The notes: generated from the letters alone by a model not told the origin. Shown: positions 1 to 54,789, numbered from the stretch's first letter. The stretch: 64,000 nt of DNA from a candidate division WOR-3 bacterium (GCA_039801725.1 JBDRVE010000004.1:6992-70991), one strand, 5' to 3'. Numbers and translations: made by a program.

Positions 1-211
1 AGGTCAACAGATAACTCAACAGATGGATAAATTAAATAATGAAATAACCCAATTAAAAGAAAAAATAAATATCCTAACTGCTACGTTAGATTCATTAAAG
101 GCTGTTTATGAAGAGCATTATCAACAATTCCATACGAAAAAACCAGTAACACCAGCACCAAAACCACCAACACCACCAGCGCCAAAGGTAAAACCACCAA
201 CAAGAAAGTAA
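1..211 (+). CDS. Hypothetical protein. Probably the C-terminal fragment of a gene that starts before the window: a coiled-coil segment followed by a Pro/Lys-rich tail.
   Basis: The frame is open from position 2 with no upstream stop. Heptad-like N-terminal segment, then a PAPKPPTPPAPK low-complexity tail. No recognisable family. Confidence 0.3.
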   Translation, partial: GQQITQQMDKLNNEITQLKEKINILTATLDSLKAVYEEHYQQFHTKKPVTPAPKPPTPPAPKVKPPTRK

Positions 212-223
212 AAGGAGGTAAAA

Positions 224-1006
224 ATGAAGAAATATATTAAACTCCTTTTTTTAATTTCATTATTTATAATTTTCCTTGCTTGCGAACAAGTGGTTGAAAG
301 ACCGGAAAAACCAACAGTTTCTTATCAACCGATTGATAATGGTGCAAAACTTCGTTTAACTTGGACTCAAGTGGCCAATGTTGATGGTTACTATATTTAT
401 GTAGATGGCATAAGAGATACTTCTTTACCATCAACCGTTACTTCTTATGATGTAAGCGGTCCAGCAAAACTAATTGAAGTATCCGCCTACAAAAAGAATG
501 AAGAAAGTGAAAAATGGAGTTTAGATCTAACACCGGTAGTAAGCGAAGTAAGTGTTTATGGTGCTAGCGATCCTTCGCCCGATCATCCAAGCGGTTTGCA
601 ATTAACTGATAATGGTGCCATTCCCTTGGCAATTGGCAATCAAGCGAATTGGCCTAATTTAGATTATATTTTTGATGACCGGGGCGAATTTGCACCAATG
701 TCTATTGTTAATCCCGGTGATTATACTTCTCCTCATTATAATGATAAAGGAAATGCAATTTCTCAAATCGCTTCCGGAAATTTTGATGCTGAAAATATGG
801 CACCTGAACCGGGTGTTTATTCGACTCAAAGAAAAAATATTGAAATAAATGGTGTCTATTATCTTTGGCTAGATAGAAATAACAACGGATATTCAGTGGA
901 TGATAATTTTGGTAAAATTTTAATAAAAGCAATTAGTGGCACCCGCGTTGATATCAAAGTCGCCTATCAAAAAGTTCCCGGACTCCGTTGGGTAAAAACT
1001 CAATAA
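224..1006 (+). CDS. Lipoprotein, hypothetical (signal peptide plus lipobox LAC, possible Fn3-like domain).
   Basis: AAAGGAGG ribosome-binding site 8 nt upstream. N-terminus MKKYIKLLFLISLFIIFLAC is a typical lipoprotein signal. No catalytic motif recognised. Confidence 0.5.
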   Translation: MKKYIKLLFLISLFIIFLACEQVVERPEKPTVSYQPIDNGAKLRLTWTQVANVDGYYIYVDGIRDTSLPSTVTSYDVSGPAKLIEVSAYKKNEESEKWSLDLTPVVSEVSVYGASDPSPDHPSGLQLTDNGAIPLAIGNQANWPNLDYIFDDRGEFAPMSIVNPGDYTSPHYNDKGNAISQIASGNFDAENMAPEPGVYSTQRKNIEINGVYYLWLDRNNNGYSVDDNFGKILIKAISGTRVDIKVAYQKVPGLRWVKTQ

Positions 1007-1024
1007 CCAAAATCTTTATTAGGA

Positions 1025-1060
1025 GGCCCCGAGATTAAATCCTCGGGGCTTTTTTATTTT
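1025..1060 (+). terminator. Rho-independent terminator downstream of the lipoprotein gene.
   Basis: Stem GCCCCGAG (1026-1033) pairs with CTCGGGGC (1042-1049), with an 8-nt loop followed by a run of T residues. Confidence 0.65.
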
Positions 1061-1714
1061 ATGCTTCTTTTATTTTTATTTAATCTCTTTAATGAAACAA
1101 TTCACTACGACCTTTATTTAGGATTTATTAAGGTTGGTTCTTTAAAATTAGAATGTAAAAAGATAATTTATCAAGAAAAAGAAGCTTATCGTCTCGCTTG
1201 TTATCTCCATTCAAATAAAAACTTATCCCCTCTCGTGGAAATTGCCGATACCTTAATAAGTTATGCTGACACTCATCTCAAAACTTTATTTGCTTATAAA
1301 AGTATTAATGAAAAAAATTTTAAGGAGAGATGCAGTATTTATTTTGATTATAAAAATAATAAAATTATTTACAGTGATAACACTATTTTTCCATTAATTA
1401 ATGAAATAAAAGATATCTTGACTTTTTGGTTTTATATACGTAAAATTATTGCCGAAGATAAAATGGCTAAAAATTGTTTTCTTCATTATAATAAGCAAAA
1501 TTACGAAGTAATTTTAGAAAAGAAAAGAAGATTGTTTATCAATACCAATATTGGTTCTTTTTATACATATGAAATTTACCCCAAAACAAAACCAAAAGCA
1601 AAAATTTTAGGAAGTATCTATATTCAAGAGGGAAAAGATTATTTACCTTTAATTATTAAAACAAATTTTCTTGGTGGACTTTTAAAAGCAATAATCAGAG
1701 ATTATGAGAGATAA
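1061..1714 (+). CDS. Hypothetical protein, DUF3108-like.
   Basis: 217-aa ORF. Sequence pattern (YDLYLGFIKVGSL..., C-terminal GS...L) resembles DUF3108-family proteins. The assignment is from memory of that family only. Confidence 0.35.
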   Translation: MLLLFLFNLFNETIHYDLYLGFIKVGSLKLECKKIIYQEKEAYRLACYLHSNKNLSPLVEIADTLISYADTHLKTLFAYKSINEKNFKERCSIYFDYKNNKIIYSDNTIFPLINEIKDILTFWFYIRKIIAEDKMAKNCFLHYNKQNYEVILEKKRRLFINTNIGSFYTYEIYPKTKPKAKILGSIYIQEGKDYLPLIIKTNFLGGLLKAIIRDYER

Positions 1715-2789
1715 TTTAAAAAGATATGCAATAATTATTGCTGGTGGTCGAGGAGAAAGATTTTGGCCCTTAAGCCGATTTAAAAGACCAAAACAATTCT
1801 TAAAACTTTTTTATAACGAATCTTTGTTAAAACTAACCAAAAAAAGAATTACTGGATTTATTTCTTTAAAATATCAGAAATATGTGGTCCCTAAAGATTT
1901 AGCAAAAAATACCAAAGATTTATTAAAATTAAAAGAAAATAATTTAGTAATTGAGCCCCAATCCAAAAATACTGCCATTGCTATCGCCTTGGCTTCTTTC
2001 CATATCAAAAAAGAGAGTAACGATGCCTTAACTATTGTGTTGCCTGCTGACCATTTAATTAAAAATCAAGAAGAATTTTATAAATGCGTTGATTTCGCTT
2101 TCCAAATTGCAAAGGAAAATTACCTGGTGACTTTCGGAATTCCGCCCACTTATCCAGCAACTGGTTACGGTTATATTGAGATTGATAATTTAATAGAGGA
2201 AAAAGATAATTTAAAAAGTTACCAAGTAAAACGATTTGTTGAAAAACCAAATTATGAAAAGGCAAAAGAATTTTTGGAAAGCCAAAGATTCCTTTGGAAT
2301 AGCGGAATGTTTGTTTGGAAAATAGATTATTTTTTAAAACAGGTAGAAAAATTTATGCCTTCCCTTTATGAAGATTTAAAATTATTGGAAAAATATTTGG
2401 GAACAAAAAAAGAAAGAAGGTTGTTAGAAAAAATTTATGAAAAGGCAGAAAATATTTCTGTTGATTATGCGATTATGGAAAAGGCTGAAAGAATTGCCGT
2501 AGTAAAGAGCACTTTTGATTGGGACGATGTAGGTTCAATTTTAGCCTTAGAAAGATATTTTGAGAAAGACGAAAAGAATAATATCAAAATCGGTAATATC
2601 CTTTCTTGGGAGACAGAAAATTCTATTTTTTATACAAAAGATTTACCGGTTTTTTCTTTAGGTATAAAAGATTTGATTTTGATAAAAGAAAAGGATCTAA
2701 TATTTGTTTGTGATAAAAAAGAATTTGATAAAATAAAAAATTTTTTAAAAATATTAAAAGAAAAAAAAGAATATCAAAAATATTTATGA
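1704..2789 (+). CDS. manC: Mannose-1-phosphate guanylyltransferase-like sugar nucleotidyltransferase.
   Basis: N-terminal AIIIAGGRGERFWPLSR nucleotidyltransferase signature (G-G-x-G-x-R-L/F-x-P-L). Length 361 aa. Start overlaps the upstream ORF stop. Confidence 0.6.
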   Translation: MRDNLKRYAIIIAGGRGERFWPLSRFKRPKQFLKLFYNESLLKLTKKRITGFISLKYQKYVVPKDLAKNTKDLLKLKENNLVIEPQSKNTAIAIALASFHIKKESNDALTIVLPADHLIKNQEEFYKCVDFAFQIAKENYLVTFGIPPTYPATGYGYIEIDNLIEEKDNLKSYQVKRFVEKPNYEKAKEFLESQRFLWNSGMFVWKIDYFLKQVEKFMPSLYEDLKLLEKYLGTKKERRLLEKIYEKAENISVDYAIMEKAERIAVVKSTFDWDDVGSILALERYFEKDEKNNIKIGNILSWETENSIFYTKDLPVFSLGIKDLILIKEKDLIFVCDKKEFDKIKNFLKILKEKKEYQKYL

Positions 2790-3373
2790 AGATTTTTTTA
2801 GCCACTAATAACAAGGGAAAGATAAGGGAAATAAAAGAAATCCTCTCTGATTTAAACGTCCAAATCTTAACTCCTCAGGATTTAAAAATTAAATTTATTT
2901 GTAAAGAAGATGGTGACAGTTTTTATGAAAATGCTTATAAAAAGGCAATTACTGGGTTATTACAAACGGGTTATATCTCAATTGGTGAAGACTCAGGTTT
3001 AATGATTGATTATTTAAATGGTGCCCCAGGTCTAAAATCGGCACGATTTACCAAAAAACGAAATTCCAAAGAAAATATCAAGAAAGTACTGAGTTTATTA
3101 AAAGGTGTGAAAAAAGAAAAAAGAAAGGCAAAATTTAAATGTGTAATGGCTTTGGCTTTATCCTTAAAAAAAGTAAAATTCTTTGAAGGTGAATGCGAAG
3201 GTTATATTAGCGATAAAGAAATGGGAAATAAAGGCTTTGGCTATGATCCAATCTTCATTCCAAAAGGTTATAATAAAACTTTTGCCCTTCTTGGAGAAGA
3301 AAAAAATAAAATAAGTCATCGGGCAAAAGCTCTTTTTCAATTAAAAAACTTTCTAAAAACTCTAATAAAATAA
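2786..3373 (+). CDS. rdgB: Non-canonical purine NTP pyrophosphatase (dITP/XTP pyrophosphatase, Ham1/RdgB family).
   Basis: Motifs ATNNKGKIREI, GYDPIF and SHRAKA. Length 195 aa. Confidence 0.85.
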   Translation: MKIFLATNNKGKIREIKEILSDLNVQILTPQDLKIKFICKEDGDSFYENAYKKAITGLLQTGYISIGEDSGLMIDYLNGAPGLKSARFTKKRNSKENIKKVLSLLKGVKKEKRKAKFKCVMALALSLKKVKFFEGECEGYISDKEMGNKGFGYDPIFIPKGYNKTFALLGEEKNKISHRAKALFQLKNFLKTLIK

Positions 3374-15799: not shown

Positions 15800-17130
15800 T
15801 TTTGGATTATCTTCTGTTTAATTTCTAATTTTGTTATCCTAAAAATCAAAAAATAACAATTAATTAAGTCATTGTTTTTTAGTAAAAATTTTTTAAGAAT
15901 TTTATCTTTAAAATAATTTATCGCTATTCGTGTAATTGGTTAAAACATCGTTACTAGCCATAAAGTGACAATAATCAGGAGCATAATAATCTAAAATAAT
16001 AACCGGAAAAATTAGCAAAATTTTCATTTAGATGAGTTAATCCTAAAGATTTAAGCTTTTCTAATGGAGTTAAATTATTAATACAATAGCCAAAAATGGG
16101 GTCTTTTGGTATTATAATATATCTGCCATTTCTGTGTTTCTTTAAGAAAATGGGAGCAATTTTTAAAAGTTGGTATCAAAGGAATATAAAATTCTTCGTC
16201 ATCGGTTTTATGCGACCTTTCTACCCTTCCTTGATATCCTTTCCTTCCTTTTGGTGCCTTTCCTAAAACAGCACCATAAATTTTATACCGCCTCTCATTA
16301 ATTAATCTCAATTTATGAGGATCATCACCGCCAAATTCCTTACCCCAATCCTCCTGCCAAAATACTTCTTTATCTATTCCCCAACATCTTAGCCACATCA
16401 TTACCAACCCAACAAAAAGAAAGCCGTTCTCCTGATTTAAATTATAACTATTAGGAAATAAATCTAAATCTGGAAATACTTTCACAAAATTTCCATTGGT
16501 ATATTGGTAGTTTAAGAAGAGAAAATATTCGGCATAATTCAGTTCCTAATGTTCCCTTATCCAAAATATCTTTGGTATCTACTTGAACATAGGTAAAAGG
16601 TTTTTTCATTTCATAACTCCAAGATGCTGAATAAAATCTTTTTCTTTCTTTTCTTTTTTCTTTCTCCTATTTTACCCGAAAGACATTTCTTTACTCTCCA
16701 TTCGTTTAAATTAAGTTTCAAAGCAATCCTTTTTTCCCAATTAGTTTTCTTATATAATTCCAGTATTTTCTCTTGGATTTCTTTAGGAATTCTTTTAGGT
16801 GAATTATGTGGCTTTCTTGTGAGTTCTTTAAGACTATCTTCTCCTTTTTCTTTGTATCTTTTTTATCCATTTTCTTAGGGTATTTCAGGAGACTCTGTAT
16901 TTTCTACTGATTTGGCTTATATTTTTACCTTTGTTGTATTCTTCTATCATTTTTACTTTTTACTTTTGTATGGAACCATAGGCGTCCCTTTTTAATTTCT
17001 TTATTTTCTTAATTCTTCTTGGGACGCCTATTATTTTAAGAAACTTATTGAATAATTTCAACACATCTTCTACCTCAATACCCTTATTAACCTGGTAACC
17101 ATGTCTTACCACAATTACTTTTTTGATCAT
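15800..17130 (-). mobile_element. Degenerate insertion sequence (IS481-like). Boundaries are approximate.
   Basis: Non-coding AT-rich flanks surround the transposase pseudogene. Terminal inverted repeats could not be identified by eye. Confidence 0.4.
16078..17120 (-). pseudogene. IS481-family (rve/DDE integrase) transposase, multiply frameshifted or stop-interrupted remnant.
   Basis: On the minus strand: an N-terminal HTH piece (MIKKVIVVRHGYQ..., EEYNKGKNISQISRKYRVS); an RPH-like segment (KELTRKPHNSPKRIPKEIQEKILELYKK) in another frame; and a DDE core (TYVQVDTKDI... then GRVERSHKTDDEEF...YNTKRPH) in two further frames. The plus-strand ORF 16624..16878 is antisense to it and judged spurious. 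Confidence 0.6.
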
Positions 17131-17194: not shown

Positions 17195-18310
17195 ATGAAA
17201 GTAGAAAATGTAGAAGAATATTTTAACAAATTATTAATGGAATGTGTCCGAAGAAAAGCTTCTGATCTTCACCTCACAGTAGGACGACCTCCGACTTTAA
17301 GAATTGATGGTAAACTTTATCCTATTGAAGGAGAACCGGTTTTAACTCCGGAAATGACCGAAAAATTTAAAGATATTGCTGCTCAGCATGCTAAACATTT
17401 GAGAGCACAAATTAATGACGGGGGTGGTGGTGACTTTGGTTTAGATTTTGGTGAACACGGTAGATTTCGTGTGGCAATTTATAAACAGAAAGGATTTTTT
17501 GGTCTTGCTCTTCGTTTAATTCCTAAACATATTATGAGTTTTGAAGAAATTGGCTTTCTTCCCCATCTCGTTCCTAAAATTAAAGCGTTATTAGATCGGC
17601 CTCACGGTCTGATATTAGTAACTGGACCTACCGGTTCAGGAAAATCAACCACTCAAGCGTGTTTCATTGATTATATTTTAAATTCTCCTCGCCATGTTTT
17701 AACGATTGAAGACCCAATAGAATTTGTTCATGACCATAAAGCAGGAATTATTACCCAAAGAGAAGTGGGTGTGGATGTTTCTTCTTTCCGTGAGGCAATA
17801 ATGAAAGGATTACGATCCAACCCTAATGTAATTCTGGTAGGTGAGATTAGAGATTTAGCAACTGCTGAAGCTACTGTTTGGGCCGCTGAATCGGGACATT
17901 TGGTAATTGGAACTTTGCATACCACTAATGCTACCGAAACGGTAACGCGGTTTATCGATATCTTCCCGCCAGAAATCCGTGATCAAATTAGAATACAATT
18001 CTCAATTTCTTTATTAGCAGTATTTTCTCAAAGATTACTTTTAAGAGCAGAAGGAAAAGGAAGAATTGCTTGCTTTGAAATAATGATGGCAACACCGGCA
18101 GTTAGGAATTTAATCAGAGAAAAGAAAATCGAACATCTTCCTTCAGCAATTCAAACAGCTTCGGCTGAAGGAAGTATTACTTTTGATGCTTATCTTGCCG
18201 AACTTTACAAAATGGGAAAAATTACTTACGAAACAGCAATGCAGAATGCCTTTGACCCCAAAGCCCTCAGAGAATTAATCGAATACGGCAGTAGAAGGCA
18301 TCGTTCATAA
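17195..18310 (+). CDS. pilT: Type IV pilus retraction ATPase, PilT/PilU family.
   Basis: Walker A GPTGSGKST, Asp box, His box and AIRNLIRE. 371 aa. Has a Gly-rich insertion (DGGGGDFGLDFGEHG). Confidence 0.8.
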   Translation: MKVENVEEYFNKLLMECVRRKASDLHLTVGRPPTLRIDGKLYPIEGEPVLTPEMTEKFKDIAAQHAKHLRAQINDGGGGDFGLDFGEHGRFRVAIYKQKGFFGLALRLIPKHIMSFEEIGFLPHLVPKIKALLDRPHGLILVTGPTGSGKSTTQACFIDYILNSPRHVLTIEDPIEFVHDHKAGIITQREVGVDVSSFREAIMKGLRSNPNVILVGEIRDLATAEATVWAAESGHLVIGTLHTTNATETVTRFIDIFPPEIRDQIRIQFSISLLAVFSQRLLLRAEGKGRIACFEIMMATPAVRNLIREKKIEHLPSAIQTASAEGSITFDAYLAELYKMGKITYETAMQNAFDPKALRELIEYGSRRHRS

Positions 18311-18343
18311 ATATTTAAAGCAAAAAACAGAGTATCAGAATAT

Positions 18344-20225: not shown

Positions 20226-21407
20226 TTAGATTGTCAATCTTTTGATGAGAATTGTTGCATAGGAACCAGCTGGTAATATAAAATTTAAAATAATTTTATA
20301 TTTTCCCTTATATAACTCATCAGGCAATAAATCACTGGTCTTCATTTGGGTAGGTAAAATTATTGCTTTTCTTAAATAAGGCTTGAAATAGAGGCCACGG
20401 ATGCTCAATTTTATTTTAAGGTCTTTTAAAGAAAACCCATCTTTTTTTAGAACTTCTTCCATAATATTAATAATTTCGTTTTTTTCTTTTATTTTGGGAG
20501 AAGGTGCTGGAATAAAGAGATTTAATAATTTTTCTTTAAAGGAAGCTGGTAAAGTTTTATAAAAATATAATTCACCAAAACTGTATCTTACAGGAAAAAT
20601 CGAAATAGACAGATTTTTTAGATACAAATTTAAGGTTTCGTTCCAAATATAAGCCTGATAAGCATTAACAAAAATTTTCAGAAGTTCTAAAGGAATTTTT
20701 TTAATAGCTCCTTTATAGTCTGTTGGATTATTTATTAGATAATTTATAACTGGCAAATACTCCCGAATTGCCAAATTTTTTGCTTCCTCCCATTTTCCCC
20801 AATTTTCTCTCAAAAATTTTTTTAATTTTTTAATTTTACTTTCGTCAAAAGAAGAAGGAGTAGCAAGAAAAAGTTTCAAAGCCTTTTCATAATTCTTTTT
20901 TATTAAATAACAAGCAATAAATCCTTGTTTGTGCCGTGCACTCCCCATTCTCTGTTCGTCATAAAAATTTGGTAAACCATTAATCCTTGCTTCCCAAAAA
21001 TTATCAATCATTCTTTCTCCTTCTTCTTTTTTTAAATCTCTGATAGTAATTTGAAAATAATTTCCTAATAAATCCTCTTTTTTTAGGGGTCTATCTAAAA
21101 AACCTAAGAGAGTTAAAGAAAAATTTTTTTCTTTTATCGTTTCTTTCTCTACTGTGTTAGAAGCTAAATATTGAAAAGCATAAGAATACCGGTCTTTTAA
21201 CCCTAAACGATAGATTTTATCAAATTTATATTTCTTTTGTAAAATATAGATAACATCTAGCGTATTAAAATTTTTCTTTTCTAATAAATAAACTGCATAT
21301 TCTCCTTTTTCTTGTAAAGATAAATTTACAATTTCTTTAACAAAAAAATCTTCTGGTTTTACTTTTACTTTTATAGGTTTACCAAAAAAGGAAATTTTTG
21401 TTGAAAT
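20226..21407 (-). CDS. truD: tRNA pseudouridine(13) synthase TruD. Start uncertain: no ATG, GTG or TTG is available.
   Basis: PEDFFVKE...GEYAVY...LGLKDRYS (catalytic Asp region) and LPNFYDEQRMG motifs. The reading frame is open from 21422 to 20226. The ORF track reports only from the internal Met at 21011. The nearest plausible start is ATT at 21407..21405. Confidence 0.7.
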   Translation of the reverse strand: MSTKISFFGKPIKVKVKPEDFFVKEIVNLSLQEKGEYAVYLLEKKNFNTLDVIYILQKKYKFDKIYRLGLKDRYSYAFQYLASNTVEKETIKEKNFSLTLLGFLDRPLKKEDLLGNYFQITIRDLKKEEGERMIDNFWEARINGLPNFYDEQRMGSARHKQGFIACYLIKKNYEKALKLFLATPSSFDESKIKKLKKFLRENWGKWEEAKNLAIREYLPVINYLINNPTDYKGAIKKIPLELLKIFVNAYQAYIWNETLNLYLKNLSISIFPVRYSFGELYFYKTLPASFKEKLLNLFIPAPSPKIKEKNEIINIMEEVLKKDGFSLKDLKIKLSIRGLYFKPYLRKAIILPTQMKTSDLLPDELYKGKYKIILNFILPAGSYATILIKRLTI

Positions 21408-23002
21408 TCTTCTTTCCGATAATCAGGTAAAATCTTGGGTGACTTCCTCTTCTCATCTACACCGTTTTCTTTCAATTCTTTATGATAGGTAATTAAATGG
21501 TTCAAAGTTAATTTCTTAATTGGTGGTAATTCTTTAAAAATTTCACCAGCCCTTTTACCTGCTCTTTTACCAAATACTAATATATCTAATAAGGAATTCC
21601 CCATTAAACGGTTTCTGCCGTGAACTCCACCACTTACTTCCCCACAAACTAATAACCCCAAAACATTTGTCTCACAATTTTCATCAATTAAAATCCCACC
21701 ATTCTGATAGTGTTGCGTTGGGTAAGTTAACACCGGCTCTTTCCTCATATCAATCCCAAAACGTAAAAATTGACGAAACATTGCAGGCAATTCTTTTTCA
21801 ATTGTGCCTTCGCCTTGAAGGATTTCAATTAAAGGAGTATCAAGCCACACACCATAATAACCGCCAGGTGTTTTTATACCTTTTCCTCGCAAACATTCTC
21901 TAATTATTGCCGAAGAGACTACATCTCTAGTTTCTAATGAATAAATAAACTGTTCACCATCACAATTTACTAACTGGGCACCTAAACTTCGTACCTTTTC
22001 AGTAATCAATTGTCCTAACATTTGCTCAGGAAAAGCCACACCCGTGGGATGATACTGGATCGTATCAAGATAGATAAATTTGGCACCAGCTCGATAGGCT
22101 AATACCAAGCCATCAGCAGTTGCTCCATAATGATTAGAGGTAGGAAATCCTTGGACATGTAATCTACCGGCACCACCAGTTGCCAAAATTGTTACTTTAC
22201 TTTTAACAATGATTAATTTGCCATTTTCCAAATTTAACAAAACAGCGCCACAGCATTTTCCATCTTCATCAGTTAATAGTTCAATCGCACAAGTAAATTC
22301 TAAGAAATTAATTTTTTTATTTAAAAATTCGTCTCTAATTACCCGCATTATCTCCATTCCGGTATAATCTTTACAAGTATGCATTCTCTTTCGAGAAGTA
22401 CCACCACCGTGAATAGTAATCATACTACCATCTTCTTTTTTATCAAACATTACTCCTAAATCTTCTAACCATTTGATAATTTTGGGACCATCGGTAACTA
22501 AAGTGTAAACCAACTTAGGAATATTTTTATATCCTCCGCCACCAATCACATCTAAATAATGAATAGCCGGGGAATCATTCTCCTTATCGGCTGCTTGGAT
22601 ACCTCCCTGCGCCATTGTAGTATTAGCATCACCAATTCTTAATTTAGTAACTAAAAGGATATTTTTTGTGTATTCATAGGCAGATAACGCTGCTGCCACA
22701 CCCGCTCCTCCGCCACCAATAATTAAAATATCCACATCATAATCAATATTTTCTAATTTAAAATTTTCTGGATTTAAATAAGAATAACTTTCTAAAATAT
22801 CAGCAATTTCATTAACAACCAAATCTCCTTTATTTACTCCCACTTTAATCTCTCGGACTGTTCCCGGTTTATAATCAGGATGATAGTTTTTTAAAAGTTC
22901 TTGCTTTTCTTCTGCTTTTAATTTAGGGAAAATCTCCTTTCTTCTTCTCTCCCGAGTACTTTCTACTTTTTTTATTGACTCTTTCATATAATCAAAATAC
23001 AT
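21371..23002 (-). CDS. Succinate dehydrogenase/fumarate reductase-type flavoprotein subunit. FAD is probably non-covalent. Carries a 95-aa N-terminal extension.
   Basis: IIGGGGAG dinucleotide fold, GDANTTMAQGGI (Asp in place of the covalent-FAD His), HPTG, and RNRLMGNSLLDILVFGKRAG active-site/C-terminal motifs. 543 aa. Confidence 0.7.
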   Translation of the reverse strand: MYFDYMKESIKKVESTRERRRKEIFPKLKAEEKQELLKNYHPDYKPGTVREIKVGVNKGDLVVNEIADILESYSYLNPENFKLENIDYDVDILIIGGGGAGVAAALSAYEYTKNILLVTKLRIGDANTTMAQGGIQAADKENDSPAIHYLDVIGGGGYKNIPKLVYTLVTDGPKIIKWLEDLGVMFDKKEDGSMITIHGGGTSRKRMHTCKDYTGMEIMRVIRDEFLNKKINFLEFTCAIELLTDEDGKCCGAVLLNLENGKLIIVKSKVTILATGGAGRLHVQGFPTSNHYGATADGLVLAYRAGAKFIYLDTIQYHPTGVAFPEQMLGQLITEKVRSLGAQLVNCDGEQFIYSLETRDVVSSAIIRECLRGKGIKTPGGYYGVWLDTPLIEILQGEGTIEKELPAMFRQFLRFGIDMRKEPVLTYPTQHYQNGGILIDENCETNVLGLLVCGEVSGGVHGRNRLMGNSLLDILVFGKRAGKRAGEIFKELPPIKKLTLNHLITYHKELKENGVDEKRKSPKILPDYRKEEFQQKFPFLVNL

Positions 23003-23022
23003 TGAATACCTCCTTAATTATA

Positions 23023-23694
23023 TTAAGGCTCAATCTCTCTTTTCTCATATAGTTCTTTCAACTTTTCGACAGGCATCTTCATCAATTCTTGTAAATCCTT
23101 CTCAAATTTCCCATCCTCAATTTCCTTTATTCTTTTTTCTAAATCTTTTGCTTTTCTTTGAATTAATCGACCATAAATCCTTCTTCCTAAAAGGCCCACG
23201 TAATATTGCACAATTTCCGCTGGACAACGAGAGGCACATAAACCACACATAATACAATCAAAAGATAATTCAGCAACTTTTTTAACATCTCCCCTTATTG
23301 CTGCATTCACGTATTCCATAACTTTTAAATCTTGCGGACAGACTCGATTACAACTACCACAGGAAATACATCTTAAAATTTCAGGATAGTATTTTATAAA
23401 GATTTGAGTATCATAATCCAATTCTTCGAGATTATAAAGTGCTTTGTTAGCAGGATAGAAAGGAATTTGAGCTAAATACATTCCGTCTTCCACAGTGGTC
23501 TGACAAGCTAAACCAACTTTTAAACGAAAAGAATCTTTCTTACGATAGACAGTCGAACAAGCGCCACAAAAACCACCGCGACATCCTGCACCACGAATCA
23601 AAAGAAATCCGCAGTATTCTAATGCTCGCATAATTGTTAAACCTTCGGGTACCAAATACTCTTTTCCCATTATATAAATTTTTACTTCTTTCAT
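23023..23694 (-). CDS. SdhB/FrdB-like iron-sulfur subunit with a [2Fe-2S] cluster and two [4Fe-4S] motifs.
   Basis: CRGGFCGACS...C (plant-type 2Fe-2S), CISCGSCNRVCP and CIMCGLCASRCP. 223 aa with a Lys/Glu-rich C-terminal tail. Confidence 0.65.
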   Translation of the reverse strand: MKEVKIYIMGKEYLVPEGLTIMRALEYCGFLLIRGAGCRGGFCGACSTVYRKKDSFRLKVGLACQTTVEDGMYLAQIPFYPANKALYNLEELDYDTQIFIKYYPEILRCISCGSCNRVCPQDLKVMEYVNAAIRGDVKKVAELSFDCIMCGLCASRCPAEIVQYYVGLLGRRIYGRLIQRKAKDLEKRIKEIEDGKFEKDLQELMKMPVEKLKELYEKREIEP

Positions 23695-23708
23695 ATTTTT
23701 AACTTTAT

Positions 23709-24266
23709 TTATGCTTTAGCATACTTTTTAACACCCATTTCATACAAGTCATTACCATAAATATCATTAATCACAATTACCGGAAAATCTTCCACTACTA
23801 ATTCGGAAATTGCCTCCGGACCTAAATCTTCATAAGCAATTATTTTGGCACTCTTTATTTTCTTCATCGTTAAAGCCGCGACACCTCCAATCGCACCAAA
23901 ATAAACTCCTTTATACTGCATCATTGCTTTTTTTACTGCTTCGCTCCTATTGCCTTTTCCTATCATTCCTTTTAAACCATTGGCCAATAAAATTGGTGTA
24001 TAAGGATCCATCCTTCCGGAGGTGGTTGGACCTGCTGGACCAATAGGATAGCCTGGTTTTGCCGGCGCAGGACCTACATAATAAATTATTGCTCCTTTTA
24101 ATTCAAAAGGTAACTTTTCTTTTTTTTCGATCGCTTCTACCAATCTCTTATGGGCTAAATCTCTTGCGGAATAGATAACTCCGTTTATTAAAACCTGATC
24201 CCCTGCCTTCAAATTTTCCACTATTTCATCGGTTAGCGGAGTTACAATTCTTTTTACTTCCATCAT
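23709..24266 (-). CDS. fumB: Class I fumarate hydratase beta subunit (Fe-S hydro-lyase, tartrate/fumarate beta-type catalytic domain).
   Basis: GPAPAKPGYPIGPAGPTTSGRMD and GAIGGVAAL motifs. 185 aa. AGGAGGA ribosome-binding site. No alpha-subunit gene is adjacent. Confidence 0.75.
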   Translation of the reverse strand: MMEVKRIVTPLTDEIVENLKAGDQVLINGVIYSARDLAHKRLVEAIEKKEKLPFELKGAIIYYVGPAPAKPGYPIGPAGPTTSGRMDPYTPILLANGLKGMIGKGNRSEAVKKAMMQYKGVYFGAIGGVAALTMKKIKSAKIIAYEDLGPEAISELVVEDFPVIVINDIYGNDLYEMGVKKYAKA

Positions 24267-24286
24267 TTCCTCCTACTTAAAATTAA

Positions 24287-24315
24287 ATTATAATAATTTA
24301 TAAAATAAATTTCAA
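24287..24315 (-). promoter_or_regulatory. Sigma70-type promoter for the fumB/FeS/flavoprotein operon.
   Basis: On the minus strand: TTGAAA (24315..24310), 17-nt spacer, TATAAT (24292..24287). The AGGAGGA ribosome-binding site and tandem ATG start follow. Confidence 0.45.
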
Positions 24316-25045
24316 TGAAAATAAAATGTTTATATTAGAAGATACTTTTAAAATTGAAAACAATCTAACTATTAAACATGATAGTATATTATTATATTAT
24401 CATTTCTAAATATGTAAACACTTTTTTAACAACAGCTCCTTTATTAAATAGTTAAAAAATGGTAACCTTTTTGCCTTCTTTTACGTATATATTATATACG
24501 GGAAAAATTAACTATTTATCCTCTGGTGAATACCACAAAATAAATAAAATTAAAGATAATAAGATTAAAATGGCAACAATTATTGAAAGTTCAGTTAAGA
24601 TAGTTTTATTGAAAATAACTCTAAGATGGAGGTAGTTAGTGAAAGAAAGGCGCCTCCAGTCCAATAATTAATTAAATTTCTCACTTACCTATTTTTAGGC
24701 TTCATTCTTATTGAACAAAGGGATTTTATCCCTTTTTAAATAGGGAGCAGTATAGAATACTATATAGGTTTTTATTTAAGAAAAATTATTAAAAATAATT
24801 TATAATTACTAATCTTATATTTTAACAATTTCTATCAAAATAATTTGAAAAATAGTAGTAAATATAATTTTACGAAACTATCATAATTTTCTGTTAATTA
24901 CCATAGCAATTGATTCTTTTATGATTACCTTTTCATAAATAGCATAATTTTTGCGATATTAGAATTATTAAGTCTTCTTTATAATTTAATTTTGCTTTTA
25001 ACAGACAATTACTTATTTAACAACGATGTTTTGGTTGGCCAGAAA

Positions 25046-25882
25046 TTAAATGCCGGCCAGATAGGAACTTCTTACTTTGATTCCGCTAATAATTTTCTTT
25101 ATCCCAATCTTCTTACCCCATTCAACAAATTTTTTAAAATCTTCTTCTCTATAATATTTTTTCACCGGATAGTTACTTCTTGAAGGCATCAAATATTGAC
25201 CAATAGTAACTATATCCACATCGGCTTTTTTTAGATCAAGCAGAGTTTCATAAATTTCTTCTTCTTCTTCCCCTAAACCGACCATAAAACCACTTTTAGT
25301 AATAATTCTATTATCTAATTCTTTCGCCTTTTTTAAAATCCATAAAGAACGAAAGTAATCAGCTTTTTTATCCCTAATAATTTTTGTTAATCTCTTGGTA
25401 GTTTCAATGTTATGTGCCAAAACGTTAGGTCTTCTTAAAACCACTTTTTTAAGTGCCTCTAATTCACCCATAAAATCAGGTATCAATACTTCGATTAAAG
25501 TATTCGATGATATTTTTCTTATCTCTTCAATTGTTTTAACAAAAATTTCGGCGCCGTAATCTTCTAAATCGTCACGAGTAACAGAAGTTATTACGCAATA
25601 ATTAAGAGAAAGCTCTTTAACTGCTAAAGCAACTCTTTTTGGTTCATCTTCCGAAACCCTTTCGGGAACTCCTTTGGGCACACCACAAAAAACACACCTC
25701 CTTGTACAAATATTTCCCAAAATCAGAAAAGTTAAAGATCTTTTACTAAAACATTCTCCTAAATTTGGACACTTGGCATTTTCACAAACAGTGTGTAAAT
25801 TATATTTTTTTAAAATACTCTTCAAAAAAACGTAATCCTCTCCTCCTGGTAAAGAAGATAACTTAGCAAAATAGGATTCCAT
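25046..25882 (-). CDS. lipA: Lipoyl synthase (radical SAM).
   Basis: N-terminal CxxxxCxxxxxC plus the radical-SAM CTRRCVFCGV. 278 aa. Confidence 0.9.
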   Translation of the reverse strand: MESYFAKLSSLPGGEDYVFLKSILKKYNLHTVCENAKCPNLGECFSKRSLTFLILGNICTRRCVFCGVPKGVPERVSEDEPKRVALAVKELSLNYCVITSVTRDDLEDYGAEIFVKTIEEIRKISSNTLIEVLIPDFMGELEALKKVVLRRPNVLAHNIETTKRLTKIIRDKKADYFRSLWILKKAKELDNRIITKSGFMVGLGEEEEEIYETLLDLKKADVDIVTIGQYLMPSRSNYPVKKYYREEDFKKFVEWGKKIGIKKIISGIKVRSSYLAGI

Positions 25883-47305: not shown

Positions 47306-48334
47306 ATGAAGGCTTATAAATTAAAAAAGGAATATTTAAAGGAATATCTAAAAAGTTTAGAAGACTTTGGAGAAGTTTGGGGACCGATAAAGAAAGGAGA
47401 TATTGATGTCTATGAAAAAATTAGTGATTATTCCCTATTAAATCTCAATGCCTTAAGACCTATTTTACCTTTAAAAAAATTTCTTATTCCACCAAAATTT
47501 AATACCTTCTTTTATACCAAAGATGGTAAATACGAAAATGCCTTAAAGGATGTTAAAAAAAGAATTATCTTTGGTGTCCATCCTTGCGAAATTCATGCTC
47601 TTTTAATTTTAGATCGATTGTATAAAGAAAGATATCCTGATTATTATTATTTAATCCATAGGAAGTCAACATTGATCGTTGCTCTTTCGTGTGTTCCTGA
47701 CGAAAAGTGCTTTGCTCGGTCCTTGAATACTCACTTTGTCGAAGAAGGTTTTGATTTAGGATTTACTGACTTAGATGATTACTATCTTGTTTGGGTTGGC
47801 TCTTCAGAAGGAGATGATTTATTACGTTGTCGTTTAGATCTATTTGAAGAAAAAATCACCTCTCAGGATTTAAATCGTTATATTGAATGGCGGAAGTGGC
47901 GAGATAATCAATACCAACTTAATTTAGACCTTACTGCGATGCCGGATATTATGGAATTAAGTTATGATTTAGAAATCTGGGAAGAAATTGGCGAAAAGTG
48001 TCTTTCTTGTGGAACTTGTAGTATGGTCTGCCCTACCTGTACGTGTTTTAATATTGCTGATTATTTAGGCATCGAAGATGAACCTGGAAAAAGGGAAAGA
48101 TTTTGGGATAGTTGTATGTTAAAAACTTTTGCCTTGGTTGCTGGTGGCTTTAACTTTCGTGAAAGAAGAGCAGATCGGGTAAAACTTTGGTACACTCATA
48201 AATTAAAAGCCTTCATTACCGAATTTGGCAAACCAGCATGTGTGGGTTGTGGTCGCTGTATCGCTAATTGTCCAGTGAATATTAATGTGACTGAAATAAC
48301 AAAAATTTTAAAAGGAGAGGGAGCTAAAAAATGA
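47306..48334 (+). CDS. Sulfhydrogenase beta-subunit-like (HydB/AsrA-like) iron-sulfur protein.
   Basis: Two 4Fe-4S motifs: CLSCGTCSMVCPTC and CVGCGRCIANCP. 342 aa. First gene of a four-gene hydrogenase operon. Confidence 0.65.
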   Translation: MKAYKLKKEYLKEYLKSLEDFGEVWGPIKKGDIDVYEKISDYSLLNLNALRPILPLKKFLIPPKFNTFFYTKDGKYENALKDVKKRIIFGVHPCEIHALLILDRLYKERYPDYYYLIHRKSTLIVALSCVPDEKCFARSLNTHFVEEGFDLGFTDLDDYYLVWVGSSEGDDLLRCRLDLFEEKITSQDLNRYIEWRKWRDNQYQLNLDLTAMPDIMELSYDLEIWEEIGEKCLSCGTCSMVCPTCTCFNIADYLGIEDEPGKRERFWDSCMLKTFALVAGGFNFRERRADRVKLWYTHKLKAFITEFGKPACVGCGRCIANCPVNINVTEITKILKGEGAKK

Positions 48335-49167
48335 ACGAAAATTTGTACCAACCTATTCCAATGAGAATTGTAAGAAGATATGATTTAATTGAAAATGTAC
48401 GTTTCTTCCAAGTAAGGCCGATAGATATTGAAAAAGCCTTAACTATAAACTACAAACCTGGCCAATTTATGATGATCTCTCTTTTTGGAGCTGGGGAAGC
48501 CCCTTTTTCTATTTCCTCCTCACCATCTCGTCCTGGTTTATTAGAATTTGGTATTAGGAAAATTGGTGTTCTAACAGAGCAACTGTTTAAATTAAAAGAG
48601 AATGAAATAATTCATATTCGGGGACCTTATGGCAATGGATTTCCAATTGAAAAAATGTATGGTTATAATCTAATTATTGTTGCTGGCGGTTTAGGAGCAG
48701 TGCCTTTGCGTTCTTTACTTTTGTATGCTTTAGATAACCGTGATTTATTTAAAAAGATCTATTTTCTTTATGGTGCCCGACGACCAAAGGAAATGTTATT
48801 TTTAAGGGAATTTTTAGAATTAAAAGAACGAGAAGATTTAGAATGTCTTTTAACAGTAGACAAAGATGATACCGGAACTTGGACCGAGAAAATTGGGGTG
48901 GTAACCGAACTTTTCAAATATTTAAAAGATATTGATCCGCAAAAAACCTATGCGGCAGTGTGTGGTCCGCCGATAATGTATCGATTTGTAATTGATAAAT
49001 TAGTAAGTTTAGAAATCCCTAAACACCAAATTTTAATGACCTTAGAGAGAAGGATGCGGTGCGGTATGGGAAAATGTGGACATTGTGTTATTGGTTCCAT
49101 TTATACTTGTGTTGACGGACCAGTTTTTACTTATTGGGATGTATTACATATGAAAGATTTAATATAA
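48331..49167 (+). CDS. Sulfhydrogenase gamma-subunit-like FNR-family protein (FAD/NAD(P)-binding plus a C-terminal [2Fe-2S] cluster).
   Basis: FNR-like beta-barrel and Rossmann halves (IIVAGGLGAVP) with a C-terminal CGMGKCGHC cluster motif. 278 aa. Confidence 0.7.
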   Translation: MNENLYQPIPMRIVRRYDLIENVRFFQVRPIDIEKALTINYKPGQFMMISLFGAGEAPFSISSSPSRPGLLEFGIRKIGVLTEQLFKLKENEIIHIRGPYGNGFPIEKMYGYNLIIVAGGLGAVPLRSLLLYALDNRDLFKKIYFLYGARRPKEMLFLREFLELKEREDLECLLTVDKDDTGTWTEKIGVVTELFKYLKDIDPQKTYAAVCGPPIMYRFVIDKLVSLEIPKHQILMTLERRMRCGMGKCGHCVIGSIYTCVDGPVFTYWDVLHMKDLI

Positions 49168-49178
49168 AATTTAAGAAT

Positions 49179-49955
49179 ATGGAAAAGAAATTAAAAGTTG
49201 GTTTTTATGAATTTACCGGCTGTGCCGGTGATTTATTAACTATTGTTCACAATGAAGATTATCTTCTAAAAGTTTGGAATTCGGTAGAAATTGTCAGTTT
49301 TCGTTTGGCAACAAGCAAACGAAATGAAAAAACAAATTTAGACATTGCCTTCGTTGAAGGTTCGATAACCAGCGAAGAGCAAATAGAAGAACTTAAAAAA
49401 ATAAGAGAAAAAAGCAAAATTTTAGTAGCCTTAGGGACTTGTGCTTCTTTTGGTGGTTTACAATCAATGTATTCTCACCAAGAGGATTTTTTAACCCGTT
49501 TCAACTCCGTTTATCCTCATAAATTTGCTATTTTAAAACCCTTGGAATCAAAACCATTAGAAAATTATGTAAAAGTAGATTATTTTATTCCGGGTTGCCC
49601 TATTGATTTTAAACTTTTTCTTTTTAACTTTACAAGACTTTTGAGAAATCTGCCGGTAGAATTACCTTATTATCCTGTCTGTTTAGAATGCAAATGGCGA
49701 GAAAACAATTGTCTCCTTTTAAAAAGGATTCCCTGTTTAGGTCCTTTAACTCGTGCCGGCTGCTCAGCAAGATGTCCAACTAACAATCTACCTTGTGTTG
49801 GCTGTTTCGGTCCTTACGAAGATTTAAACCTTTCTTCTTGGTTAAAAATCTTTCAAGAAAATAACATTCCTTTTAAGGAATTAGAAAAAAAAGTGAGACT
49901 ATTTTGGGGAACAAAAGCAAAAGAAATTTTAAAACAACTTAAAAATAAAAGATGA
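49179..49955 (+). CDS. [NiFe] hydrogenase small (delta) subunit, group 3b type.
   Basis: GCAGD and GTCASFGG proximal-cluster motifs, plus further Cys clusters. Start set at Met 49179 because the 49134 start would overlap the upstream gene. Confidence 0.7.
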   Translation: MEKKLKVGFYEFTGCAGDLLTIVHNEDYLLKVWNSVEIVSFRLATSKRNEKTNLDIAFVEGSITSEEQIEELKKIREKSKILVALGTCASFGGLQSMYSHQEDFLTRFNSVYPHKFAILKPLESKPLENYVKVDYFIPGCPIDFKLFLFNFTRLLRNLPVELPYYPVCLECKWRENNCLLLKRIPCLGPLTRAGCSARCPTNNLPCVGCFGPYEDLNLSSWLKIFQENNIPFKELEKKVRLFWGTKAKEILKQLKNKR

Positions 49956-51241
49956 AGAAAATAAAAGTAGATTTAGTTACCCGTGTTGAGGGACACGGAA
50001 ATATTTATATTGAAATTTACAAGAATAAATTTAAAAGCATCAAATTTGAAATTCCCGAAGGTCCCAGGCTTTTTGAAACCTTGGTCCTTAACAAAACCCC
50101 AGAAGAAGTACTGAATATAGTATGTCGGATTTGCGCAATCTGTAATGTTTCCCATCGTTACTCAGCGATTCGGGCATTAGAAAAAATTGGTAATATTAAA
50201 GTTCCTAACGAAATTATCCTTTTACGAGATTTAGCTCATTATGGAGAAATGTTAGAAAGTCATGCCTTACATCTTTTCTTTCTTGCCTTGCCTGACTTCT
50301 TGGGATTTCCCGATGCTATTAGTATGGCAGAAAAATTTCCGGATCTCGTTCAAATTGGTTTGAGAATTAAGAAATTTGGAAATTCCATAATGGAAAAAAT
50401 TTTAGGTAGAATGATGCATGGTGAAAATATGATTATTGGGGGTTTTGGCAGATATTTAACCGCTGAAGAACTAATGGACATTAAAAAGGAAGCCGAGCAA
50501 TTGTTACCGGAAGCAATAAAATCTTGGGAAGTTACTCGTGACCTTCATTATACCACTTTTTGTGAAGAAAGCATGCTTTTTGTTTGTCTAAAACCGCCAA
50601 CCGATGAATATGGTTTCTGGGGTGATGAAGTATTGATCTCCAATGGAGAAGAATATCCAATTGAAAAATTTTATTCTTTAATTGAAGAAAGAATTGTTCC
50701 CCATTCCTCCGCTAAACATTCTTATTATCAAAATCGTCCTTATATGGTTGGTGCTTTGGCAAGAATGAGTTTATTAGGAGAAAGATTACACAATGCCTCG
50801 GCAGAAGCTTTTAAAAAGAGTTATAGTTTAAGTTGGATAAGAAATCCGTTATATAACAATCTTGCCCAAGCAATTGAGATTATTTTTTCGTTAGAAAAAG
50901 TAATTTCGACGGCGGAAGAACTTTTAAAGAAAACACCCTTCAAAGAAACATTAATAACTTATCAAAAATTTAATGGGAAAGCGGTCGGCAGCGTTGAAGC
51001 ACCCCGGGGAACACTTTTCCACTATTATGAATTTAAAAATAAAAAATGCGCGAAAGCAAACTTAATTATTCCAACAGCCCAAAATTATGCCTCTATTGAA
51101 CAGCATCTGAAAGTTTGTGTTTGTAATATAATTAAAAAATTTGGAGTAAAAGAAGAAGAATTAATTAGTGAATCAGAAAAAATTATTCGCGCCTATGACC
51201 CCTGTATTTCTTGTTCTTGTCATATTGTAAGAACTTCTTAA
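49952..51241 (+). CDS. [NiFe] hydrogenase large (alpha) subunit, group 3-like.
   Basis: N-terminal RVEGHG and RICAICNVSH (L1 CxxC). C-terminal DPCISCSCH (L2 DPCxxCxxH). 429 aa. Confidence 0.85.
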   Translation: MKKIKVDLVTRVEGHGNIYIEIYKNKFKSIKFEIPEGPRLFETLVLNKTPEEVLNIVCRICAICNVSHRYSAIRALEKIGNIKVPNEIILLRDLAHYGEMLESHALHLFFLALPDFLGFPDAISMAEKFPDLVQIGLRIKKFGNSIMEKILGRMMHGENMIIGGFGRYLTAEELMDIKKEAEQLLPEAIKSWEVTRDLHYTTFCEESMLFVCLKPPTDEYGFWGDEVLISNGEEYPIEKFYSLIEERIVPHSSAKHSYYQNRPYMVGALARMSLLGERLHNASAEAFKKSYSLSWIRNPLYNNLAQAIEIIFSLEKVISTAEELLKKTPFKETLITYQKFNGKAVGSVEAPRGTLFHYYEFKNKKCAKANLIIPTAQNYASIEQHLKVCVCNIIKKFGVKEEELISESEKIIRAYDPCISCSCHIVRTS

Positions 51242-51846
51242 TATCCCCAAACTTCTTCCAGATAAACTTTTCTTCGACAGGTAGGGCAAAGAATTTGTAA
51301 ATGGGAAGCCCGGTAAGGAAATTCTTTAGTTTCTATTTTTGGCTCGTAAACCAAACCTAATTCTTTATAATAAGTTAAAAATAAAGTTGGGTTAGCCGAA
51401 ATTAAAGTTCCAACTTTTTTGGCAACCCAAATTATTTGGTCTTTGGGAGCAATTATTTCGCCACAAGAAGCACAAAGGATTAATTCTTTTTCTATTTCGT
51501 TTTTATAATTATCTTTTTTTAAAGAGGCTAAATCAAATTCCGGTGTGTGTTTAATCCCTTCGCCCGTAATACAATATCTTACACATTGACCACAATAAAT
51601 ACATTTTTCTTGATAATGAATAACTTTTCTAATTTTTTTATCTTTATCGTCAATTATCTCTCTTGCCTTAGAAGGACAAACTTCCGCACAAGCACCGCAC
51701 CCAACACATTTCTCTTCATTGAAAACGATTTTTCCCCGAAAATTAGGAAAAACTTTTGCTGGCCGATAAGGAAATTTTATTGTATAAGGACCCTTAAAAA
51801 TTGCTTTGATGGCTTCTTTTAATTCTCTTAATTTAGGTTGTCTCAT
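51238..51846 (-). CDS. NuoI/HycF/MbhN-like 2x[4Fe-4S] ferredoxin subunit of the membrane-bound hydrogenase.
   Basis: CVGCGACAEVCP and CIYCGQCVRYC motifs. 202 aa. Last gene of the minus-strand hydrogenase/Mrp operon. Confidence 0.7.
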   Translation of the reverse strand: MRQPKLRELKEAIKAIFKGPYTIKFPYRPAKVFPNFRGKIVFNEEKCVGCGACAEVCPSKAREIIDDKDKKIRKVIHYQEKCIYCGQCVRYCITGEGIKHTPEFDLASLKKDNYKNEIEKELILCASCGEIIAPKDQIIWVAKKVGTLISANPTLFLTYYKELGLVYEPKIETKEFPYRASHLQILCPTCRRKVYLEEVWGY

Positions 51847-52467: not shown

Positions 52468-52956
52468 TTACTCAAAAATCCTTTTTAAATATTTTTCAAA
52501 AGTTTGGGCAATTATTTTCTTTGCCTTTTCCTCATCTTCTTCTTTTATCCAAATCCAATGGATATAAAGAGTATCGCCATCTATTTCACAAGTCATTGTT
52601 CCCGGTGTCAAAGTAATAGAATTGGCTAAAAAAGTTTTAGCAATATCCGTTTTTAAAGATGTTTTTATTTTTATAATCCCTGGTTTTAAAGGCATACCAG
52701 GATGCAAAACTCTTAAAGCAACATCTAAATTCGCTTCTAAACACTTATAAGCAAAGATGGGGATGTAAACTAAAAGCCAAAACCACCGGTGGACTTGGAA
52801 AATTTTTATTGGCTTTTCAATAAAATAACCACCAAAAATAATACCGCTCAATAAAGAAACCACAACACCGACAATAATTTCATCGTAATTTAAACTAAAA
52901 GTAAGTAAAAACCATAAAATTAAAGCAACAATAAAAAAGATAACCTTTCTCATCAT
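52468..52956 (-). CDS. mrpE: Mrp antiporter subunit E-like (MnhE).
   Basis: 162 aa. Two N-terminal TM helices plus a soluble domain. Its position between mrpD and mrpF is conserved. Confidence 0.55.
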   Translation of the reverse strand: MMRKVIFFIVALILWFLLTFSLNYDEIIVGVVVSLLSGIIFGGYFIEKPIKIFQVHRWFWLLVYIPIFAYKCLEANLDVALRVLHPGMPLKPGIIKIKTSLKTDIAKTFLANSITLTPGTMTCEIDGDTLYIHWIWIKEEDEEKAKKIIAQTFEKYLKRIFE

Positions 52957-54452: not shown

Positions 54453-54787
54453 TCTTTTAACCTTTTTATTTCTTTAATATCAAAAGTTTTATATTTTTCA
54501 TAAATTCTTATTGCTACGGATAAAAGCAAAGCAGTAGTACCCAAACCAATTACGATTGCTGTCAAAACCAAAGCCTGAGGAATTGGATCAACGAAATTCC
54601 TTGCTTGTTGAGCATTAGTATAAATTGGTGCTAAGGCATCTTTTTTATAACCAATAAACGCAAAAAATAGATTTACCGCATATTCCAATAAGCAAAAGCC
54701 AATAGCAATTTTAATCAAATTCCTTTTTGTTAATATCGCATAAATACCAATTAGAAAAAGAATTATACAACCTAAATAAGGTAACAT
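54449..54787 (-). CDS. mrpC: MrpC/NuoK-like subunit.
   Basis: 112 aa, 3 TM helices. LIGIYAILTKRNLIKIAIGFCLLEYAVNLF resembles NuoK/MnhC. Confidence 0.65.
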   Translation of the reverse strand: MLPYLGCIILFLIGIYAILTKRNLIKIAIGFCLLEYAVNLFFAFIGYKKDALAPIYTNAQQARNFVDPIPQALVLTAIVIGLGTTALLLSVAIRIYEKYKTFDIKEIKRLKE

Positions 54788-54789
54788 AA

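Follow-up and report, generated by a model that had tools for sequence, protein, structure and literature searches.

This report concerns a cluster of three genes in a 64,000-nucleotide stretch of DNA from a candidate division WOR-3 bacterium (GCA_039801725.1, JBDRVE010000004.1:6992-70991), hereafter the window. The genes lie on the minus strand and encode the beta subunit of a class-I (two-subunit) fumarase (23709..24266, 185 aa), an iron-sulfur (FeS) subunit (23023..23694, 223 aa) and a flavoprotein that resembles FrdA, SdhA and TfrA (21371..23002, 543 aa). The three open reading frames (ORFs) are co-oriented and separated by gaps of 14 nt (beta/FeS) and 20 nt (FeS/flavoprotein). A preliminary description of the window had listed these genes, and both its coordinates and its gene descriptions are correct. 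It had also noted the lack of a membrane anchor gene, in agreement with the neighbours of the cluster, which are lipA and truD. Metagenome-assembled genomes (MAGs) of the candidate division WOR-3 bacterium encode a protein with 100% identity to the flavoprotein, and the window aligns to JBDRVG010000002.1 (GCA_039801705.1, locus L007) with 99.995% identity over 21,632 bp. The GC content of the window is approximately 30%.

The first gene encodes a fumarase beta (C-terminal) subunit, as had been proposed. The protein matches PF05683 (7e-59, 199 bits, cutoff 22) and the NCBIfam model NF005310, "Fe-S-containing hydro-lyase" (271 bits, cutoff 238), in both cases above the cutoff. Its residues R35, T81, T82, R85 and K104 align to R457, T503, T504, R507 and K527 of the L. 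major fumarate hydratase (FH). The substrate-binding residues described for the fumarase beta subunit 7XKY_B are R32, T80, T81, R84 and K104 (PMC13147460). The beta gene is under purifying selection, with a ratio of nonsynonymous to synonymous divergence (dN/dS) of 0.03-0.075 against sister species that likewise have no adjacent alpha gene (dS at least about 0.7-1.4). Within this alpha-less clade, at a dS of 1 or more, the selection on beta is as strict as that on the FeS and flavoprotein genes and stricter than that on lipA. The purifying selection and the kept substrate-binding residues together predict a partner alpha subunit elsewhere in the genome.

No gene for a fumarase alpha subunit, a CCG (HdrB-like) protein or an HdrC-like protein was found in the 64-kb window by tblastn with several queries, and the earlier statement that the window encodes no alpha therefore stands. 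The search for an alpha relic in the spacer upstream of beta used three to four alpha queries with a word size of 2 and E values up to 50, and returned nothing. An alpha gene was located by ranking the homologues of a WOR-3 alpha on AT-biased amino-acid composition (FYMINK/GARP), a measure that also singles out the flavoproteins of the low-GC clade. Four candidates emerged and were confirmed through cluster members and contig look-ups. At the candidate loci the order is rpmA, a gene for a metallo-beta-lactamase (MBL)-fold protein and alpha, followed by a convergent gene and without beta. A separate contig scan with a WOR-3 alpha returned at least 80 loci, none of them of the window's genome; that scan was pattern-dependent and has no bearing on absence.

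An intact alpha gene (P0241, 280 aa) lies in the rpmA-MBL-alpha arrangement on JBDRVG010000021.1 (GCA_039801705.1; locus L110, 3655-4497). The same protein is encoded on JBDRUZ010000011.1 (GCA_039801635.1) and on a contig of Logan run SRR21619494. These two assemblies and this run are the very ones that carry the beta-FeS-flavoprotein operon, on separate contigs. The source profile of P0241 equals that of the window flavoprotein, and in four assemblies its NCBI accessions are only a few hundred away from those of the flavoprotein. The pairing of flavoprotein and alpha accessions within assemblies holds also in three sister species. The alpha protein matches the M. jannaschii fumarase alpha subunit 7XKY_A at 9e-69 and keeps the CQDTG, CPP and NCH motifs; the three cluster-ligand Cys motifs are present. 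Within the clade its dN/dS is 0.03-0.05 (dS at least about 0.7-1.4).

No second beta gene occurs within 8 kb of alpha, so the window beta is most likely its working partner and not a spare copy. FeS, flavoprotein, CCG and HdrC-like genes were also not found within 8 kb of alpha. The preliminary description had taken the gene for half of a fumarase, in an unusual wiring, and this part of it falls with the alpha encoded in the same assemblies. It had named an alpha found elsewhere, in a normal fumAB pair with the window beta as a second copy, as evidence to the contrary. The alpha does exist elsewhere; it is solitary, however, and not part of a fumAB pair with a second beta.

Comparison with other WOR-3 genomes indicates how the two genes came apart. 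In seven independent WOR-3 loci (L011, L013/14, L017, L018, L019, L023 and L039), whose flavoproteins are 60-70% identical, the order is rpmA (L27) - MBL-fold (Lactamase_B_3) - alpha - beta - FeS - flavoprotein, which is the ancestral layout. The derived order, lipA - beta - FeS - flavoprotein - truD without alpha, is found in the window and in the sister species L015 (91% identity) and L016 (85%). Adjacency is the rule more widely: of 80 genomes sampled by way of their alpha gene, 73 have beta right beside it, and in two of the other seven a contig end interrupts the locus. The ancestral WOR-3 operon thus appears to have been cut between alpha and beta by a rearrangement in the low-GC clade to which the window's genome belongs. 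Alpha would have remained behind rpmA and the MBL-fold gene, while beta, FeS and flavoprotein would have moved between lipA and truD. Together, the alpha subunit, with its three [4Fe-4S] Cys, and the window beta would form an ordinary class-I fumarase of the heteromeric kind, acting between malate and fumarate. This is a fumarase with split genes and not half an enzyme, and both halves are under strong selection at unlinked loci.

The alpha locus has features of its own. In WOR-3 and in several other phyla, the gene immediately upstream of alpha encodes an MBL-fold protein (Lactamase_B_3, about 217 aa; L011, L013, L017, L018, L019, L023, L028, L030, L031, L033, L039, L094 and L098-L110), and it was kept with alpha after the operon split. 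In loci L103-L108, which represent the alpha locus of the window's genome, one flank of alpha (locus coordinates 1-3092) encodes a GltD/SudA-like protein of 559 aa with Fer4_20 and Pyr_redox_2 domains, together with subunits of a 2-oxoacid:ferredoxin oxidoreductase. The other flank (about 15970-16843) encodes a PycB/OadA-like carboxylase subunit of 621 aa. By their predicted products these neighbours would fit a reductive C4 branch.

The FeS subunit has the cluster complement that had been claimed for it, an SdhB-like set of one 2Fe-2S and two 4Fe-4S motifs. It matches Fer2/Fer2_4 and Fer4 dicluster Pfam families. The 2Fe-2S Cys are C38, C43, C46 and C64, and they are followed by two CxxCxxCxxxCP motifs; all 12 Cys are invariant in nine relatives. 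It is similar to SdhB/TfrB in their N-terminal half and lacks a CCG domain. The TfrB model matches at 1e-11 with 44 bits (cutoff 385) and covers the 2Fe-2S part only. The dhsB model gives 34.5 bits and does not reach its cutoff of 88.

The flavoprotein carries an FAD_binding_2 domain (PF00890) over residues 91-471 (4e-68). Its best-scoring curated model is TfrA (1e-109). The covalent-FAD His had been described as replaced, and the HMMER alignment places Asn127 at the position of E. coli FrdA His44. This Asn is invariant in 36 relatives, as are the residues at the positions of FrdA H232, T244/E245, R248, R287, H355 and R390, all of which are kept. With Asn127 at this position the FAD looks like a non-covalent one. 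No Pfam match occurs beyond residue 471, where a Succ_DH_flav_C domain would be expected; in its place is a short tail ('LLPDYR') with an invariant L-P-D-Y motif. The nearest solved structures are 7d6v (M. smegmatis Sdh1, 2e-61) and E. coli FrdA (4e-50). The AlphaFold model has a mean pLDDT (predicted local distance difference test) of 78, with 74-94 over the first 90 residues. In Foldseek, some 450 of the 543 residues can be superposed on FrdA/SdhA structures with a template modelling (TM) score of about 0.65, and the top ranks go to FrdA of E. coli, human SDHA and Sdh1 of M. smegmatis.

The N-terminal extension of this protein, thought in the preliminary description to be unique and about 95 aa long, is a module of about 90 aa that is conserved in homologues across phyla and is hence a family trait. 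Homologues that are 63-70% identical at 98-100% query coverage, extension included, occur in WOR-3, Latescibacteria, Elusimicrobia, Armatimonadota, Desulfotomaculales and an archaeal Geothermarchaeales MAG. The extension residues R17, R20 and H41-P42-D43 are invariant among the 36 relatives. A search of this segment had been proposed; the extension is present and no Pfam family matches it, but a search of 1.8 billion representative proteins returned 387 matches, so it is not unique. Among the 150 matches listed, nearly all are N-terminal and most targets are short. The flavoprotein family is annotated only as "FAD-binding protein".

The coupling of this pair to fumarase is a conserved module, which is found in the seven other WOR-3 loci, in a Syntrophomonadaceae MAG and in a Desulfotomaculales MAG. 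Around the pair the gene content differs between lineages. WOR-3 and the one Syntrophomonadaceae MAG have the FeS and flavoprotein genes only. The Desulfotomaculales MAG has alpha - beta - HdrC-like - CCG (HdrB-like) - FeS - flavoprotein - sucC - sucD - methylmalonyl-CoA mutase and further genes. One other bacterium and the Geothermarchaeales MAG have HdrC-like - CCG - FeS - flavoprotein beside HdrA/FlpD-type genes, and in several other phyla alpha and beta are followed by HdrC-like and CCG genes. These contexts tie the family consistently to the segment of metabolism from malate through fumarate and succinate to succinyl-CoA. The FeS/flavoprotein pair belongs to a widespread, recognisable and uncharacterised anchor-less FrdAB-like family.

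The claim of a soluble fumarate-reductase-type pair coupled to fumarase is supported by these data, without the half-fumarase wiring. The flavoprotein, with non-covalent FAD, would reduce fumarate to succinate, and the FeS subunit would deliver the electrons along a chain of [4Fe-4S] - [4Fe-4S] - [2Fe-2S] - FAD. There is no sign of a membrane anchor or of a quinone site, and the reductase is predicted to be quinone-independent. Its electrons would probably be supplied by a soluble carrier of low potential, for instance ferredoxin, or by a partner module whose genes lie elsewhere. We consider it likely that the split-gene fumarase and a fumarate reductase that is soluble and independent of quinones convert malate via fumarate to succinate, the reductase being encoded by the downstream half of the ancestral operon. 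We infer the direction of catalysis and the donor, as well as the role on the reductive branch to succinate, whether as an electron sink or in biosynthesis.

Other redox genes lie in the same window. A four-gene cluster (47306-51241, plus strand) resembles a group-3b (sulfhydrogenase-type) NiFe hydrogenase; its products are a Fer4_22 protein, a protein that binds FAD/NAD and has an Fe-S domain of the DHODB type, a small subunit (Oxidored_q6) and a large subunit (NiFeSe_Hases). A ferredoxin-like protein of 202 aa is encoded at 51238-51846. A long operon on the minus strand (52468-63985) encodes a membrane complex of the Mbh/Mbx/Mrp type, with three Proton_antipo_M proteins, one Complex1_49kDa / NiFe-like protein and small subunits. 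The hydrogenase and the Mbh/Mrp-type complex fit a ferredoxin-based anaerobe.

Several points weigh against the proposed fumarate reductase and split-gene fumarase. The curated models for the flavoprotein all remain below their cutoffs (TfrA 367 vs 718 bits, nadB 288 vs 453, sdhA_frdA 282 vs 567), and literature searches turned up no biochemical characterisation of the FeS/flavoprotein family. The assignment of alpha to the organism depends on MAG binning, although it is backed by three independent assemblies or runs, by GC content (0.33 vs 0.31) and by the accession pairing. The FeS subunit is nearly the same (57-61% identity, same tail) in genomes where HdrC-like and CCG partners adjoin it. 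Finally, the Desulfotomaculales homologues sit in a propionate-oxidation-like (methylmalonyl-CoA) cluster where succinate oxidation is expected, and in the light of this context a non-covalent FAD leaves the direction of catalysis unfixed.

Within the proposed fumarate reductase, the two-subunit form of WOR-3 may be complete in itself, that is, a soluble fumarate reductase that depends on ferredoxin (or on another donor that is neither quinol nor thiol nor NADH). We hold this idea only tentatively. Such an enzyme could have a distinct architecture, with the 90-aa N-terminal module and the LLPDYR tail. To our knowledge no enzyme of such a class has been described biochemically. If the proposal is true, the class is widespread in uncultured anaerobes. 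A 2026 survey found that "incomplete" fumarate reductases consisting of A and B subunits only are often co-located with genes of the reductive tricarboxylic acid (rTCA) cycle and are probably novel forms (PMC13147460).

Alternatively, the pair may be the core of a larger soluble enzyme whose HdrC-like, CCG (HdrB-like) and possibly NAD(P)H-binding subunits lie scattered over the genome, in which case electrons would come from NAD(P)H, a thiol or a bifurcating Hdr-type module. The sameness of the FeS subunits with and without adjacent partners, which have no distinguishing feature between them, suggests that a partner may be encoded elsewhere in the window's genome. In Desulfotomaculales, in another bacterium and in Geothermarchaeales, HdrC-like and CCG genes stand immediately ahead of the pair (57-65% identity), and one operon has already been split in the lineage of the window. 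In H. thermophilus, the five genes of the NADH-dependent fumarate reductase are reportedly scattered in the genome. On the other side, CCG and HdrC-like genes are absent from the 64-kb window and from the 8 kb around alpha, and seven other WOR-3 genomes have none in the 4-8 kb around the operon. A dispersed enzyme is in our judgement a possibility worth keeping, albeit on the unlikely side.

It is improbable that the enzyme works physiologically as a succinate dehydrogenase (SDH), in the oxidative direction. The Desulfotomaculales setting, which looks like a methylmalonyl-CoA cluster in which succinate would have to be oxidised, speaks for this direction. The covalent-FAD His is absent throughout the family, however, and covalent flavin is needed for efficient succinate oxidation, as seen in H44 variants of E. 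coli FrdA. In addition, the operon has no quinone-binding anchor, and the other redox genes of the window point to a fermentative ferredoxin-based anaerobe.

The likeness to L-aspartate oxidase (NadB), an enzyme of NAD biosynthesis that can use fumarate as acceptor, had been offered as an alternative and is now disfavoured. A model score of 288 bits, a non-covalent FAD in common and 32% identity to E. coli NadB speak for it. The score is below both the cutoff of 453 (TIGR00551) and the TfrA score, and NadB ranks 33rd by fold, behind FrdA and SdhA. Glu121 of NadB, the catalytic base for the amino group (PMC10249383), aligns to Gly199 in an ungapped register via FrdA or to His198 by BLASTP. The E. 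coli NadB query was checked by its length of 540 aa (as in PDB 1chu) and by seven literature-numbered residues. The flavoprotein moreover comes with a three-cluster FeS subunit in every case and in many cases with fumarase or sucCD, whereas NadB is paired with neither. We regard a NadB-type function as very improbable.

The reading of beta as a true orphan, either a decaying remnant or a subunit co-opted without alpha, for example as a substrate-channelling partner of the reductase, agrees with a window that has no alpha, with a 779-bp spacer that holds no alpha relic and with a beta that kept the company of the reductase genes after the break, but it is largely refuted and retains hardly any credence in the face of the intact, strongly constrained alpha in the same assemblies, the purifying selection on beta with all fumarase substrate-binding residues kept, and the location of the [4Fe-4S] ligands of class-I fumarases in alpha, which makes beta alone non-catalytic.

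The flanks of the operon bear on its expression. Upstream on the same strand lies lipA (lipoyl synthase, 25046..25882, minus strand; Radical_SAM and LIAS_N Pfam matches), separated from beta by an AT-rich non-coding spacer of 779 bp (24267..25045). The spacer is 100% identical in L007-L010 and species-specific, as the gap between lipA and beta is about 50 bp in the sister species L015 and L016. It holds only short AT-rich repeats and small ORFs (up to 58 aa). Searches of the spacer gave no alpha relic by tblastn and no Rfam match, its predicted fold is not significant (z = -1.3), and no copy of it was found elsewhere except a 51-nt match at 80%.

The preliminary description reported a clear TTGAAA-17-TATAAT promoter. 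The motif is present on the minus strand (24315..24287), matches 11 of 12 consensus positions and stands ahead of the AGGAGG ribosome-binding site that precedes the beta ATG. It is not distinctive, however, since the 23 promoter-like sites in the 4.3-kb region are no enrichment over shuffled sequence (20.6 +/- 4.0), and a second site that also matches 11 of 12 positions lies 100 nt upstream (24418..24391). The species-specific spacer makes it plausible that the beta operon has its own promoter there.

Downstream, truD (tRNA pseudouridine synthase D; 20226..21374, minus strand, 382 codons, PF01142) overlaps the stop of the flavoprotein gene by 4 nt (ATAA). Its ORF opens with ATA at 21374 and, from residue 2 onwards, aligns to positions 17-411 of the 412 in PF01142. 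It contains no ATG, GTG or TTG before codon 122 (21011); the first ATG is 121 codons downstream, and gene callers on identical DNA give truD 382, 393 or 261 aa. The overlap of ATA and stop is kept in L015 and L016. A frameshift or truncation of truD was considered and rejected, as the DNA is identical in all strains, the ORF is open and a canonical start is lacking. The arrangement suggests either ATA initiation or coupling by termination and reinitiation. With this overlap the transcription unit has at least four genes; the three genes of the proposed operon stand, but the unit is not confined to them.

Farther along the window, an ORF of 135 aa on the minus strand (16078-16485) is possibly the remnant of an insertion sequence. 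The matching gene in L007 and L008 has a weak integrase-core (rve_3) match. The ORF is near a strain-variable stretch, where the alignments of L008 and L010 break (about 18191-18319).

An orphan-looking subunit in a single window can result from an operon break. Whether the tricarboxylic acid (TCA) cycle is present in WOR-3 is debated (PMC12542636), and pathway calls for this group should count fumarase as present. The FeS/flavoprotein family is strongly conserved, at 63-70% identity, in different bacterial phyla and in an archaeal MAG, and has neither covalent FAD nor an anchor. The identity of its electron donor would shed light on how many uncultured anaerobes carry out the step from fumarate to succinate.

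The fumarase described here is closest to the heteromeric class-I enzymes. Its beta subunit matches 7XKY_B of Methanocaldococcus jannaschii at 2e-30 and the L. major FH at 5e-35. In heteromeric class-I FH the alpha and beta genes are usually adjacent, whereas the window's genome has them unlinked.

With complex II (FrdABCD, SdhABCD and M. smegmatis Sdh1) the reductase pair shares the flavoprotein fold, the active-site residues and the order of the FeS motifs. The differences are the missing covalent-FAD His, the lack of a detected Succ_DH_flav_C domain and the absence of anchor genes at the window operon. The third FeS motif has four Cys and so fits a [4Fe-4S] cluster, unlike the [3Fe-4S] of complex II. 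The soluble five-subunit NADH-dependent fumarate reductase of H. thermophilus has A and B subunits and no anchor, like the window pair. Genes for C, D or E-type subunits were not found near the operon or the alpha locus. The HdrC-like / CCG / FeS / flavoprotein module of other phyla presumably resembles this enzyme in its C and D subunits.

A further parallel is with TfrAB of methanogens. The N-terminal half of TfrB, with its 2Fe-2S and 2x[4Fe-4S], has a counterpart in the FeS subunit, and TfrAB is soluble and anchor-less, like the window pair. The flavoprotein reaches only half of the TfrA cutoff and differs by its 90-aa N-terminal extension without a Pfam family. The HdrB-like CCG half of TfrB, reportedly the site of thiol oxidation, was not found in the window or near alpha, and in other phyla it is a separate gene. 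The family resembles a TfrAB in which the two halves of TfrB are encoded by separate genes.

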